Positions 24,656 through 36,412 of a stretch of 64,000 bases of DNA are shown one piece after another. Source of the DNA: a virus. The stretch is from IMG/VR virus record IMGVR_UViG_3300001765_000052; one strand, given 5' to 3'. The notes under the pieces are model-generated. The model did no database searches and was not told the DNA's origin. It saw only the letters and a list, made by a program, of their open reading frames with translations. The position numbers were made by a program, and so were the translations under genes. Every line of letters starts with the position of its first letter. Position 1 is the first letter of the stretch.

Positions 24656-24733
24656 TCCAGATTTTTTCAATCTTATATTACATTAATGAGATAGTGTCTT
24701 AGTTAATGCTACATAGTAGCGAAAGGATTTATT
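24656..24733 (+). promoter_or_regulatory. early-promoter and leader module
   Basis: tccagattttttcaatcttatattac..., TGCTAC/GTAGCG hairpin, then AAAGGA. Confidence 0.75.
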
Positions 24734-25057
24734 ATGAGTGAGTTTTTTCAATGTAAAAGTGAAAAAGATTGTTATGTAGGGTTAACTAAAAACGCCACAG
24801 ATGTTGTTCAAAGTTTACTTTTAATAAAAGGTAAAATAGGTGAGCGCGTGTGGAAACACCTCGATGATGAGTTTCATGAAAAAATCACAGCATCCGTTTA
24901 TATAAACGGAGGAAGTCACATATTTAGTCACCTTACATTAAAGAATAATGAAGGTGAGCATGATTGTTTTGGCTGGACATATAAAGAATATGTCGAAGGT
25001 GGTTTTGATTGGATTTCTGGAGAACAGTGTTGGTTTGGAAAAACCAACATAATGTAA
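24734..25057 (+). CDS. hypothetical protein (cassette gene)
   Basis: 107-aa ORF between the conserved elements. Confidence 0.8.
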   Translation: MSEFFQCKSEKDCYVGLTKNATDVVQSLLLIKGKIGERVWKHLDDEFHEKITASVYINGGSHIFSHLTLKNNEGEHDCFGWTYKEYVEGGFDWISGEQCWFGKTNIM

Positions 25058-32819: not shown

Positions 32820-33427
32820 AAATCTATTTTCTTAAATCAGCACCAAAAGAATGTTATCTTGCTTTTTCTGGTGGAGTAGATTCAGTGGTATTATTGGATC
32901 TATTAATTAGTAAAAAGGTAGATGTAACATTAGTTTGGGTGGATCATAACACGTCATGGTGCAAACAAGAATTTGAGTTTGCGAGAGAAACAGCCAAAAA
33001 ATATAAACTTGAATTAGTTTGTTATAAAATTAATCTATTTGACAAATCTACTTCACTAGAATGCTTTTGGTCTAGAGAAAGAAACAGAATATTTCAATCT
33101 TTAGATAAAAAAGTATTAGTTGGACACACGTTGGATGATGCAATGGAATGGTATGTAATGTCAGCATTCCAAGGAACTGTAAAGTTATTAGATTATCAAA
33201 ATCAGAATGTTCTTAGGCCATTATTAACAACATCCAAAGAAAAGATTTTACAGTATGCAAATAGAAATGATTTGGTGTATCTAATAGATCCTTCAAATTA
33301 CGATTCTGAATTTAATCTAAGGAATAAAGTTAGATTAAATTTAATACCGGAAGTGTTAAATTGTTTTCCTGGGTTACGCACAACAGTAGCAAAACTGATT
33401 CGTAGAAAAGAGTTTAAAAATGCTTAA
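32816..33427 (+). CDS. tilS: tRNA(Ile)-lysidine synthetase, catalytic domain only
   Basis: AFSGGVDSVVL PP-loop, GHTLDD..E, RPLL, DPSN and RNKVR motifs. Confidence 0.9.
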   Translation: MKIYFLKSAPKECYLAFSGGVDSVVLLDLLISKKVDVTLVWVDHNTSWCKQEFEFARETAKKYKLELVCYKINLFDKSTSLECFWSRERNRIFQSLDKKVLVGHTLDDAMEWYVMSAFQGTVKLLDYQNQNVLRPLLTTSKEKILQYANRNDLVYLIDPSNYDSEFNLRNKVRLNLIPEVLNCFPGLRTTVAKLIRRKEFKNA

Positions 33428-33632
33428 CATAATTATTGAGGGTCCAGATAAAGCTGGTAAAGGACATTTGATTGCACTCATTAGCCGTAAACTAAAGCAA
33501 TCAGGATTGAATGTAACTATTCAATCTGAAACAACACACAATGCACCAAAGATTGCAAAGACTGACGATGAATTAGTTGACAGGTTAAAAGATGTCGAGA
33601 TCTTTATAAAAGAAATGCAAACATTTTCTTAG
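33420..33632 (+). CDS. small P-loop protein (dNMP-kinase-like fragment)
   Basis: IIIEGPDKAGKG. Confidence 0.6.
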   Translation: MLNIIIEGPDKAGKGHLIALISRKLKQSGLNVTIQSETTHNAPKIAKTDDELVDRLKDVEIFIKEMQTFS

Positions 33633-33676
33633 AGTGACAAAGTTAATTAGGAAAAAAGAATTTAAGTAAAGTTTTA

Positions 33677-33764
33677 CCGCCTTGTCCCAATACCAGCCTT
33701 CTAAGCTGGCGTCGTTAAACAATTGGATGGATGACAAGAGGCTCGTTTCCTCCAGGGCGGTCCA
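33677..33764 (+). ncRNA. tRNA-like RNA lacking a D arm, with an Arg(UCU)-type anticodon loop
   Basis: ccgcctt/agggcgg acceptor plus T-CCA, ccagc-ctTCTaa-gctgg arm, gagg-ctcgttt-cctc T arm. Confidence 0.65.
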
Positions 33765-33799
33765 TACATTTTGTACATTAAAAGTTTGCCGGCATTTTA

Positions 33800-34145
33800 G
33801 CATATTAGTGTTTGTAGTTCATATGTGTATCTAATCACGAACGAAAAGCACCAGGCCCTAAGCCTGCATTAAAAAGATTCTGAACTGACAGAATTAACCA
33901 ATTAGGTATCAGTAAACCAAATTTAAGATCAAGATGTGTACGGTGTCTTGTGTGTACTAACGTATTGTAGTTCTAATGTGTGTATAATCACGAACGAAAA
34001 TACGGGGTGACGATACTGGGTTGTATTGAAGTCCCCTCCTTTCGAGGGCTTGCGTCGGACAGGCTTAACAAATTATACATCCGACAAATCCTAAATTATG
34101 GATTCGGCAACTTCGTTAAATGTTTGGTGTCAACTAAACATAATT
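33800..34145 (+). ncRNA. candidate large structured ncRNA (two loop-E-type hairpins, possible pseudoknot)
   Basis: Duplicated hairpin domains at 33808-33851 and 33961-34004 with compensatory closing stems, many other hairpins, and no credible ORF. Confidence 0.65.
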
Positions 34146-34175
34146 TTGTGTTAATATTCTTGTCAAGGAATTAAA

Positions 34176-34526
34176 ATGACTGTTACTATTTTAAATAGTT
34201 TAGATAAGCGTAAACGGTTACGTATTCGTAATACATTGACTGGCTTAGAGCTTCTACCAAATGTCAAAATAATTGATGAAGATGAATGTAATTTCATCCG
34301 AATTAAGCATAGACAGGAATATATTCCTGATTTTGAATTAGTGTGGTGTGATAACAAAAAACATTATAGAGTTTATATACTTATAGCAAGTACTAAACAC
34401 ATTAAAGAAAATAATGGTTATTGTATTTTCACCATACCCAATCAGTTAGCAGCAATGGGTTTTGGAACTATGTATGGTTTTATTTATAAATATCGTGCTA
34501 ATAATAAAATACCATTATTAGCATAA
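34176..34526 (+). CDS. hypothetical protein
   Basis: AAGGA SD. Confidence 0.75.
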   Translation: MTVTILNSLDKRKRLRIRNTLTGLELLPNVKIIDEDECNFIRIKHRQEYIPDFELVWCDNKKHYRVYILIASTKHIKENNGYCIFTIPNQLAAMGFGTMYGFIYKYRANNKIPLLA

Positions 34527-34541
34527 CGATTTTAAAAAATT

Positions 34542-34748
34542 ATGAATGATGCAATAATATTAGATAAACCTACTAACTCACCTATGAAATTTATAGGTGG
34601 AAGAAAATTCATACTTTCAATAATAGTAGTTATTTTAACTTCATTTCTTTGTTGGTTTAATAAAATAGACCAAGGTGTTTATTCTGTAGTTATTGTAGCT
34701 GTTATTGGGGCGTATATAACTGGTAATGTAATTCAGAAAAATAAATGA
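34542..34748 (+). CDS. small two-TM holin-like protein
   Basis: GRKFILSIIVV...VIGAYITGNV.QK pattern. Confidence 0.6.
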   Translation: MNDAIILDKPTNSPMKFIGGRKFILSIIVVILTSFLCWFNKIDQGVYSVVIVAVIGAYITGNVIQKNK

Positions 34749-34759
34749 GTTTATAGTAA

Positions 34760-35077
34760 AAGATGTTCATTTGAAATAGATTTGTTCACAAGTCTCCTCT
34801 TCTTGATTGTCATCGCACAATCGTCTATTTCAGTGTCTGTTGAATTGACAACAGTTACTTTTTTATAACGTATAACTTTCTGTGTAAATACGGCCTTTAT
34901 TGGGCTCAGTGAATTATGTTAACTTACGGAGCATCATTTACCAAAATGATGCTAATCTAGTTGATATCATTCGAACAGAACGCAAGAAATACACGAGACT
35001 ATCTGCAGAATAGGTTCTTGAGTACCACCCTTGAAGCTATTACTTTGGCCCTTATTCCTGGTAAGAATACCAGTCAA
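34760..35077. ncRNA. second candidate structured ncRNA (strand uncertain)
   Basis: About 320 nt without a credible ORF, with nested helices (tgaaataga/tctatttca, gattgt/acaatc, ctgttg/caacag, agcatcattt/aaatgatgct, ttctgt/acagaa). Confidence 0.45.
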
Positions 35078-35143
35078 AGAAATAACCTGAAATATACTGA
35101 AGAACCACTATCAGGTTCTTCAGTATATTTCAGGTTATTTCTT
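35077..35143. repeat. 30-bp perfect inverted repeat with 7-nt loop
   Basis: aagaaataacctgaaatatactgaagaacc-actatca-ggttcttcagtatatttcaggttatttctt. Confidence 0.95.
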
Positions 35144-35159
35144 ATTATGTTATATTTTT

Positions 35160-35861
35160 ATGTATATATTTAAAATTATTATTTTATTTTTTTGTTTTAT
35201 ATTTATAAATTGCGGAGGCGGTGGCAGTAGTATAGATATTAAAAATAATTCTCAAGTGTCTATTGAATTTAACGGGGATAGTTTAATGTACGGTGAAGGT
35301 ATAGCACTAAACATACCAAAATATATTAAATCTACGAATCCACAATGGACTATAGATGATAGAGGTATAAGTGGCTTAACAATGAAACTATTAGATATAG
35401 GTTATAGTGAACCATATTTGAATGCAAATAAATCATTATATCCTAGAGGTCCACAACTATCTTTTTCTAATGTTGAGCATAACAGTAATATAATAATTAT
35501 TGAATTAGGTGCTAATGATGCATATATACAATCATTAACTATAAATGAACCCAGTGAATTTAGTATGCATTTAACATCAATAGTTAACTATATTTTATAT
35601 CACAATAAAATACCAGTATTAGTATTAATACCGCAATTTTCTACAGATGGTATTTTTAATGAAGATACAAAAAAATATAGTGAATTAAATAATGCTATTA
35701 TAAGAAAAATAGCATTAGAAAAAAATTTAGATATCGTAGAATTAGATAAAGTACCATTTAATATTAGTGATACAATAGATGGTGTCCATAGAACTCAGAT
35801 AGCTTCTAACATGTTTGCTGATATGATAATCATAAAAATAAAAAATATATTAGATAGGTAA
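35160..35861 (+). CDS. SGNH/GDSL hydrolase, lipoprotein-like
   Basis: Signal peptide plus CGGGG, then GDSL, GISG, ELGAND and DGVH blocks. Confidence 0.85.
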   Translation: MYIFKIIILFFCFIFINCGGGGSSIDIKNNSQVSIEFNGDSLMYGEGIALNIPKYIKSTNPQWTIDDRGISGLTMKLLDIGYSEPYLNANKSLYPRGPQLSFSNVEHNSNIIIIELGANDAYIQSLTINEPSEFSMHLTSIVNYILYHNKIPVLVLIPQFSTDGIFNEDTKKYSELNNAIIRKIALEKNLDIVELDKVPFNISDTIDGVHRTQIASNMFADMIIIKIKNILDR

Positions 35862-35957
35862 TGTTATGAGTGCATAATCTCAATAGAAAATTCATGAAAA
35901 CTCCTTGACTATAGTCTTGTGCTAGACCGGATTAACCAATTATGCATCTAGTAAAAA

Positions 35958-36002
35958 ATCATATATCCTCTAACAGATTAGTTTGTTAGAGGATATATGA
36001 TT
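35958..36002. terminator. hairpin terminator
   Basis: atcatatatcctctaacaga...tttgttagaggatatatgat. Confidence 0.7.
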
Positions 36003-36091
36003 TAAATATTCGATACATGGGACTTTTTTCTTATTTCAAATTAATAAAACCACATATTACTAATTTGGAGTTTAAACTAAACAGGATTATT

Positions 36092-36412
36092 ATGGATAAT
36101 AAATTTTTATTTACAATTAATAAAAATATTAATGATATATTAATTGAATTAAAGGAACACCGTGTTAAATTTAACATAAATGAAATGTGCCATTTAGAAA
36201 CAATTCGAGTAGTTGCAGATATTAGTAATGAAGAATTAATTCAAATCAATTGGATTGGTTCCGTTGATAGTAAACAATTTTCTATTGAAGCAGATTATTG
36301 CCAAGATGGTACAGTATCAAATACATCAACTGTTATTTATCACGGTAACAGTAATTCATTTTTAGATGAAAAAAATATACCGGAAATTATCAACAATGCA
36401 AAGCACATCTGA
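36092..36412 (+). CDS. hypothetical protein
   Basis: ATG 36092 after AGGA. Promoter motif at about 36050. Confidence 0.65.
   Translation: MDNKFLFTINKNINDILIELKEHRVKFNINEMCHLETIRVVADISNEELIQINWIGSVDSKQFSIEADYCQDGTVSNTSTVIYHGNSNSFLDEKNIPEIINNAKHI

Follow-up and report, generated by a model that had tools for sequence, protein, structure and literature searches.

The interval from 33,800 to 34,145 of a 64,000-nt stretch of viral DNA (IMG/VR record IMGVR_UViG_3300001765_000052; this whole stretch is called the window below, and positions without a prefix refer to it) consists of an RNA module of about 105-125 nt that is self-contained, is encoded on the + strand and occurs here twice in tandem. 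The two copies span 33808-33913 and 33961-34085, a third copy is found 1.9 kb downstream at about 35858-35951, and a divergent fourth version, designated 3v, is present in a sister strain (L309:7532-7651; 57.8 bits with the covariance model). The original prediction for this interval, made from the sequence alone, was that of a structured non-coding RNA element on the + strand, and this holds: the region sits in a 543-nt gene-free gap (33633-34175) with a raised G+C content of 0.37-0.41, compared with about 0.25-0.30 in nearby DNA. The gap is flanked by the gene for a conserved 70-aa P-loop mini-protein, which follows a minimal TilS gene, on one side, and by the gene for a 116-aa protein on the other. 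The + strand is the folded strand, because the helices include several G.U pairs, and these would turn into C.A mismatches if the - strand were folded. A 64-codon open reading frame (ORF) at 33980-34174 was excluded as a coding alternative because strains differ there by indels of +1 and -23 nt.

From 5' to 3', the module comprises a hairpin H, an A-rich strand, a variable insert, strand a, a linker, strand b, strand a', the motif AAC(A/C)A, and strands c' and b'. Strand c is the 8-nt apical loop of hairpin H, and the whole loop pairs with the 8-nt strand c'. The insert (about 20-45 nt) mostly forms one or two hairpins and differs in both length and sequence in every copy. Helix a:a' (7 bp) and helix b:b' (5-6 bp) are separated by a linker of 1-2 nt, b runs straight into a', and the order a-b-a'-b' is found in all copies with covariation in both helices, as an H-type pseudoknot requires. 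Loop 3 of this pseudoknot is made up of AAC(A/C)A and c', and the latter is clamped by the loop of the upstream hairpin H. The module is a compact, doubly knotted fold. The sequences of a, b and c are private to each copy and, therefore, neighbouring copies do not mispair; a few unpaired residues are near-invariant, namely those of AAC(A/C)A in loop 3, of the A-rich strand 3' of the hairpin and at the junction of b and a'. The c:c' pairing, the H-type pseudoknot and the third copy all go beyond the original prediction.

In copy 1, hairpin H (33808-33851) is built from a closing stem (33808-13/33846-51), a GUA/GAA internal loop (33814-16/33843-45), a further stem (33817-20/33839-42), an AUAU bulge, a top stem (33825-27/33836-38) and loop c (33828-35), and it is recovered by minimum free energy (MFE) folding with z = -3.1. 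The insert forms a hairpin at 33852-33866 (CAGGC-CCUAA-GCCUG, arms 33852-56/33862-66). The pseudoknot extends over 33876-33913, with a at 33876-82, b at 33884-88, a' at 33889-95, AACCA at 33896-900, c' at 33901-08 and b' at 33909-13, and pairing in this copy is complete (c:c' 8/8, b:b' 5/5, a:a' 7/7). Between copies 1 and 2, the predicted caagat/gtcttg hairpin (33930-33950) is present in the sequence as well as in the MFE fold. Copy 2 begins with hairpin H at 33961-34004. Here, the closing stem is at 33961-66/33999-34004, the stem beyond the GUA/GAA loop at 33970-73/33992-95, the top stem at 33978-80/33989-91 and loop c at 33981-88. The variable insert of this copy (34005-34045) forms two hairpins (34012-16/34023-27 and 34034-38/34044-48), and the pseudoknot occupies 34046-34085 (a 34046-52, b 34054-59, a' 34060-66, AACAA 34067-71, c' 34072-79, b' 34080-85). 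In copy 3 (35858-35951), the top stem is at 35867-70/35879-82, loop c at 35871-78, a at 35913-19, b at 35922-26, a' at 35927-33, AACCA at 35934-38, c' at 35939-46 and b' at 35947-51. Copies 3 and 3v are devoid of the loop-E-type lower stem and of the GUA/GAA loop.

The sites of the module are sharply defined within the window. A descriptor that combines a stem-closed 8-nt loop with its complement after TAACNA matched exactly three sites in the 64 kb, at 33828, 33981 and 35871. The 3' half of the descriptor alone returned the same three sites, with only 2 chance matches in 3.1 Mb of other phage DNA; a general descriptor of structure only was too permissive (4056 matches in 3.2 Mb). Independently of any descriptor, a repeat search returned the 24-nt 3' core three times, nhmmer found the three copies only, and the covariance model scored them at 131, 126 and 108 bits, with the next match in the window at 18 bits. 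A degenerate fourth copy suspected by eye at about 34870-34935 gained no support from blastn, nhmmer or the covariance model, and two marginal covariance-model matches (24711-24816 and L432:8334-8439) both lie over coding sequence and were discarded.

The RNA fold is real and under selection. Across the three window copies, 90% of the pair cells are paired and nine pairs are changed on both sides. In the six-sequence alignment A4, evaluated with the pseudoknotted structure, the paired fraction is 94.4% and 11 pairs are changed on both sides; none of 500 shuffles reached the observed pairing, and sliding the partners by 1-3 columns reduced it to 29-39%, compared with 94.4% in the true register. 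The c:c' and b:b' helices and the top stem of hairpin H are each 100% paired across the six sequences. Changes on both sides affect 4 of the 5 pairs of b:b' and 3 pairs of a:a'. Between copies 3 and 3v, a c:c' pair is replaced from G-C to A-U, the last b:b' pair from A-U to G-C, and three a:a' pairs are likewise compensated, and between copies 1 and 3 the top stem covaries from GUG/CAC to GAG/CUC. The alignment had been fitted by a model to c:c' and a:a', with b:b' and the top stem left unmodelled, so that the latter two serve as independent checks. In copy 1, a linker shorter by one residue displaces the columns of strand a by one; when the helix is read in the register of this copy, GAUUCUG/CAGAAUU, it pairs 7/7.

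Several stems of the original prediction coincide with parts of this fold. Its two hairpin domains (33808-33851 and 33961-34004) are as described, and a repeat search aligned 33812-33847 with 33965-34000 at 89% identity; their closing stems indeed differ yet pair, with 4/6 pairs different between GUGUUU/AAGCAC and CGUAUU/AAUACG. The ttctg/cagaa stem is helix a:a' of copy 1 and the gtcgga/tccgac stem is helix b:b' of copy 2, both of which covary among the copies. By contrast, the assignment of the GUA/GAA loop to the loop-E (bulged-G) motif is at most tentative. The loop E/sarcin-ricin bulged-G motif is asymmetric (5'-AGUA-3'/5'-GAA-3') and contains a bulged G, whereas the loop here is a symmetric 3x3 GUA/GAA loop flanked by U-A and G-C pairs, and it is absent from copies 3 and 3v. 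Being identical in copies 1 and 2, it has no comparative support, and it is not a defining part of the module.

Variation among strains follows the proposed structure. Sister strains were recovered via 90%-identity cluster members of the flanking proteins, and the comparison comprised contigs from four other runs together with L300, L309 and L312. The strain substitutions within helices all preserve pairing: C33856U in the insert hairpin of copy 1 keeps the pair as U.G, U34027C in the insert of copy 2 turns G.U into G-C, and U34050C in a:a' of copy 2 turns U.G into C-G. Strands c, c', b, b' and a' of copies 1 and 2 show zero strain changes, and the UAAU bulge of copy 2 reads AUAU in other strains, which is the version of copy 1. 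A +U insertion after 34034 in other strains disturbs the second insert hairpin of copy 2. Immediately 3' of copy 2, a 23-nt segment (34089-34111), which is a diverged tandem duplicate of c'-b', is missing from L300, L309, L312 and runs X3-X5. The 9-bp hairpin further downstream, predicted as atgtttggt/actaaacat and present at 34120-28/34133-41, has an identical stem in all strains, and T34146C weakens its U run. The 18-bp hairpin after copy 3 (35958-36001) is kept in L309 with one compensatory change from U-A to C-G.

Two of the predicted stems are less well conserved. The ccctc/gaggg complementarity is present, but finds no support as a conserved structure, as it overlaps helix a of copy 2 and is disturbed by the +T after 34034. 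Likewise, aatcc/ggatt exists, but lies inside the 23-nt segment that is missing in other strains. The original prediction further held that all of the stems belong to a single large ornate RNA, with taagcctg (33859-66) and caggctta (34060-67) forming a long-range pseudoknot or switch. The complementarity itself is there, and the whole gap may well be one transcript; in L309, the corresponding 605-nt region, which includes an insert described below, folds far better than shuffled sequences (z = -5.6). However, the 543-nt gap contains 4 perfect 8-mer complements, compared with a mean of 3.06 in shuffles, and the two strands have local partners: caggctta is strand a' of copy 2, so that the long-range pairing competes with the covarying helix a:a', and taagcctg is the 3' arm of the local hairpin 33852-56/33862-66. 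We regard this complementarity as due to chance or, at most, as a weak alternative pairing. The conserved unit is the module of about 100 nt, which occurs three times and recurs alone at about 35858-35951, whereas the parts between the modules are rich in indels among strains (237, 23 and 1 nt), and neither GOLLD nor ROOL is matched. A single ornate architecture is, therefore, very unlikely.

The phage itself provides the context for a different interpretation. The window is AT-rich phage DNA (about 30% G+C) from microbial-mat metagenomes and encodes a ribonucleotide reductase, an NAD-dependent ligase, a group I intron and one tRNA(CAU), and sister contigs carry a PhiKZ-type major capsid gene. 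An octamer core, YATATTAC, occurs in ten perfect TCA-YATATTAC-TAA copies on the + strand (13968, 25125, 29805, 32116, 36053, 39653, 44950, 57929, 58335 and 58694), often 15-20 nt after TCYAGATTTTT. This looks like the early promoter family of the phage, and the core resembles the predicted phiKZ promoter TATATTAC (PMC7058600). Because of the PhiKZ-type capsid gene and this promoter core, the phage is classified as a phiKZ-like jumbo phage. An early-promoter-like octamer, CATATTAG, which agrees with YATATTAC at 7/8 positions, abuts the 5' end of copy 1 (33801-33808, + strand), and a second one, TATATTAG, is located just 5' of copy 3 (35846-35853, + strand), within the end of a GDSL-lipase ORF. 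The two octamers fall in the same alignment columns. The region 33600-36200 contains only 3 YATATTAS octamers, of which two adjoin copies 1 and 3 (P about 2.5e-4) and one is a strong cassette promoter. Judging from this placement, the CATATTAG octamer presumably acts as a promoter. At the other end of each unit, after copy 2 and after copy 3, there is a conserved hairpin: the 9-bp hairpin, followed by AAUUUUGUGUU (34120-34153, + strand), may be the 3' end or terminator of a two-module RNA, and the 18-bp hairpin may be the 3' end of the copy 3 unit.

Small RNAs and small RNAs derived from 5' untranslated regions (UTRs) have been documented in phiKZ-like phages (PMC11512511). In view of these RNAs, of the abutting octamers and of the conserved 3' hairpins, we favour the explanation that the modules are the body of predicted early small ncRNAs that run from promoter to hairpin and act as a binding platform, and we put its probability at roughly 45%. 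A first RNA with two modules would extend from about 33808 to about 34150 and a second RNA with one module from about 35855 to about 36003, each starting at a YATATTAG octamer that resembles the early promoter and ending at a hairpin. The knot would then withstand nucleases and provide a stable platform for the binding or titration of a factor from phage or host, and would be neither a ligand sensor nor a structural switch for a downstream gene. We infer both the transcript ends and the platform role.

Several observations weigh against this explanation. Early promoter motifs of jumbo phages are centred near -10 (PMC7598289), which would place the transcription start near 33814 and thus within the closing stem of copy 1, for which covariation is seen between copies 1 and 2. 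The final base of the octamers is G, whereas the strong promoters have C, and TCA..TAA does not flank them. In L309, the octamer before copy 1 is replaced by an insert. The U run of the hairpin that follows copy 2 is weak, and other strains have an even weaker one. Finally, all copies come from one phage lineage, so that the covariation amounts to 4 distinct paralogues plus minor variants.

The small RNAs of the phiKZ-like phages 201phi2-1 and phiKZ, characterized by ONT-cappable-seq (PMC11512511), are the closest parallel for the predicted RNAs. They come from the same type of virus, are short non-coding units between a promoter-like element and a nearby hairpin, and some of them adjoin tRNA genes. 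Here, too, a tRNA(CAU) gene and a tRNA-like element are both near the modules. However, those RNAs were defined by transcript ends and simple predicted hairpins, whereas the module is known from sequence alone, and it differs from them in its covarying double pseudoknot, which is repeated three times. The likeness to GOLLD and ROOL is limited to being phage-associated, non-coding and near tRNA genes. GOLLD and ROOL are single multi-domain RNAs of several hundred nucleotides, whereas the module measures about 100 nt, is modular, was found in one phage lineage and gives no match with their covariance models.

The location of copies 1 and 2 upstream of a gene suggests another possibility, namely that the modules are a cis-acting leader (a riboswitch, an attenuator or a processive antiterminator) for the 116-aa gene at 34176, with copy 3 serving likewise. 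In every strain, the tandem copies are followed by a hairpin with a U run and then by the 116-aa ORF, tandem aptamers are known, and the 116-aa gene homologues of other phages are likewise preceded by long stretches of non-coding DNA (L301). However, the 3' strand of the module shares nothing with the next hairpin, which is 6-35 nt away, and no mutually exclusive fold is evident. In addition, the genes downstream of copies 2 and 3 are unrelated, the gene after copy 3 has its own strong promoter at 36053, and no module accompanies the 116-aa gene homologues of L184 and L301. Because no strand is shared with the hairpin and the downstream genes are unrelated, a switch of the riboswitch type is disfavoured, and we consider a leader function in general quite unlikely.

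The comparison with known riboswitches bears on the same question. H-type pseudoknots with an A-rich loop 3 are found in preQ1-II and SAM-II riboswitches and in viral frameshift knots. The module has in common with knots of the preQ1-II/SAM-II type the arrangement S1-L1-S2-S1'-L3-S2', an L1 of 1-2 nt, a contiguous S2-S1' and stackable helices. Unlike them, it accommodates in loop 3 a further 8 nt whose pairing partner is the apical loop of a separate, upstream hairpin; it is matched by none of the Rfam riboswitch models, and an expression platform is not evident.

The compactness of the fold, with a hairpin loop locked onto a downstream strand, raises the possibility of an RNA-stability knot that blocks exonucleases, similar to the exonuclease-resistant RNAs (xrRNAs) of flaviviruses, and protects an adjoining transcript end. 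xrRNA-type copies occur in tandem in flaviviral 3' UTRs; the module is also found in tandem, and copy 3 begins at the GDSL stop codon and is missing, together with that gene, in sister strains. Yet simple terminator hairpins already flank the copies, and copy 3v in the sister strain follows a terminator-like hairpin rather than a gene, which makes this role improbable.

A size of about 100 nt, the double pseudoknot and the few near-invariant unpaired residues would also fit a new class of small self-cleaving ribozymes that process the transcripts of accessory cassettes and of the tRNA-like RNA. Hammerhead, twister, pistol and HDV-like (theta) ribozymes process transcripts in other phages. The module is located at cassette borders and beside tRNA-type genes, and the related TilS-carrying phages L239 and L241 have type I hammerheads in an equivalent neighbourhood. 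On the other hand, the Rfam models of hammerhead, HDV-like, twister, twister-sister, pistol and hatchet ribozymes gave no match, even at E<=10. A supposedly invariant GA/UC pair is changed to GG/CC in copy 3v, in which GAAAA is also not retained, and the topology is, as we take it, unlike the layouts of pistol, twister and HDV ribozymes. A ribozyme is, thus, as doubtful as a stability knot. Somewhat more room, although it is still unlikely, has to be left for a broader version, in which the module is a new catalytic or exonuclease-resistant fold, that is, a ribozyme class or a phage counterpart of xrRNAs, which would cut out or shield early small RNAs.

The hammerheads of the related phages are complete and type I (L241:9762-9850 and L239:15755-15905), and they lie upstream of TilS or of a tRNA array. 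They have an elaborated stem III and a shared GAUUGUAGAG...GAACCAUAUUGU, and cleavage would take place after GUC or AUA; neither is called at the Rfam gathering threshold. In the hammerhead-bearing RNAs, two hairpin loops pair to one central strand, unlike in the module, and the module covariance model and descriptor gave no match on them.

The layout of the locus resembles that of toxIN, where tandem pseudoknot-forming RNA repeats are followed by a hairpin and a small ORF, and the repeats might accordingly be the RNA antitoxin of a type III toxin-antitoxin system, or a phage-made mimic thereof, with the 116-aa protein as partner. However, the repeats of type III antitoxins form tandem arrays of units of about 36 nt, whereas those here recur at intervals of 153-171 nt, and the spacers are unrelated. 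Neither Pfam nor PADLOC gives a match for the 116-aa protein, which is modelled as a generic alpha-beta5-alpha sandwich, and copy 3 has no such partner gene. This interpretation is the least probable of those considered.

The module is not bound to a fixed genetic neighbourhood. L312 and L314 are without the whole tRNA(CAU)-69aa-TilS-70aa-tRNA-like block, unlike L309 and L311, and still have the 237-nt insert, the first two copies and the 116/124-aa gene. Therefore, the module is not tied to the tRNA-like RNA, and the block, which serves AUA decoding, is accessory within the population. The 237-nt insert in L309 stops exactly at the base with which hairpin H of copy 1 begins. Copy 3 is placed behind the unrelated GDSL-lipase gene and begins at its stop codon. 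At this third locus, a terminator-like hairpin and the 18-bp hairpin enclose copy 3v in the sister strain, whereas in the window they enclose another structured sequence of about 280 nt, the GDSL-lipase gene and, last, copy 3. The module moves with accessory cassettes.

Some features of these variable segments were recorded in passing. In the sister strains (L309:6371-6623, L312:3805-4060), the insert has the tRNA-like RNA on one side and copy 1 on the other. It carries a G+C-rich hairpin with a compensatory change from U-A to G-C between strains, three more hairpins, a TATAATTAC promoter-like site and an AT-rich unit (about 26 nt), of which L312 has a tandem duplicate. The cassette at the third locus of the window strain measures 1091 nt (34864-35954), contains a 20-bp inverted repeat (35087-35133) and is replaced by 3v alone in the sisters. 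The segment 34510-34834, with a 68-aa membrane-type ORF, is also strain-variable.

As judged from the searches, the module is apparently an uncatalogued RNA fold. The Rfam scan that had been proposed with the original prediction was carried out: cmscan with Rfam 15 at the gathering threshold matched no family to the module in the whole window, and at E<=10 it returned only chance snoRNA and miRNA rows for 33500-34300 and 34700-36100. No match was obtained in the INPHARED phages with blastn in distant mode. Scans of IMG/VR with six motif patterns gave, among the matches listed, only chance or coding matches on inspection, and the same was true of motif patterns in JGI metagenome contigs and GTDB genome contigs; these IMG/VR, JGI and GTDB pattern scans did not return the window DNA itself. 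The sequence RYYYAAC in the module was also considered, by eye, as integron attC-like, and this was rejected because a complementary GTTRRRY partner is absent.

The genes around the module were used as a second route to relatives. Searches of IMG/VR with single flanking proteins found nothing. The neighbouring minimal TilS has about 70 phage homologues, and in 80 IMG/VR loci from the TilS alignment (1.4 Mb) neither the descriptor nor the covariance model detected a module. It was also not found in the full records of the five closest relatives, in the closest syntenic relative L184, or at the loci of the 116-aa gene homologues (57-59% identity; one of them in L301). About 45 kb of sister-strain genome contain the same three module loci only. 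As far as could be searched, the family thus appears to be confined to one species complex of a giant phage of microbial mats.

This narrow distribution limits the immediate impact of the finding. If the fold is confirmed, it would represent a new RNA architecture, an H-type pseudoknot with loop 3 clamped by an upstream apical loop. The three to four naturally "orthogonal" copies per genome are a ready-made compensatory-mutation series, and its small size makes the module directly accessible to biochemical and structural work. It would also add to the growing evidence that phiKZ-like jumbo phages carry structured RNAs in accessory, tRNA-linked regions.

The genes next to the gap were characterized as well. 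The 70-aa protein (33420-33632, + strand) has a thymidylate-kinase-like P-loop, with a match limited to the first ~40 residues; its gene overlaps the TilS stop codon and is kept beside TilS in the relatives L184, L297 and L309. The 116-aa protein (34176-34526, + strand) belongs to a tiny family with the signature PDFELxWCxxKKHYRVYILIA...RANNK. It has no Pfam, PHROG or PADLOC match, no PDB sequence match and no usable feature match in the ESM Atlas, which contains the identical sequence. Its AlphaFold model (pLDDT 82) is the alpha-beta5-alpha sandwich mentioned above, and a fold search with this model returned generic matches only (frataxin, PsiB, E2-like; Z 6-8, best <= 8.4). In L301, about 900 nt of G+C-rich, ORF-poor, structured non-coding DNA (L301:700-1600) are found 5' of the 57%-identical homologue of this protein, with no tRNA, Rfam match or module copy.

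Just 5' of copy 1 there is a tRNA-like RNA (33677-33767, + strand) with a UCU anticodon-type loop and an encoded CCA and without a D arm. It is not called by ARAGORN or Rfam, which reported no tRNA or tmRNA within 33633-34175. The segment 33633-33790 has zero substitutions among the strains, compared with a difference of about 3.8% in the flanking ORFs. Finally, in L309:7700-7970, a TCCAGATTTTTT promoter element precedes a structured sequence of about 230 nt that is richer in G+C, after which there is an 18-bp terminator and its T run; this is likely to be a small-RNA gene of the sister strain.

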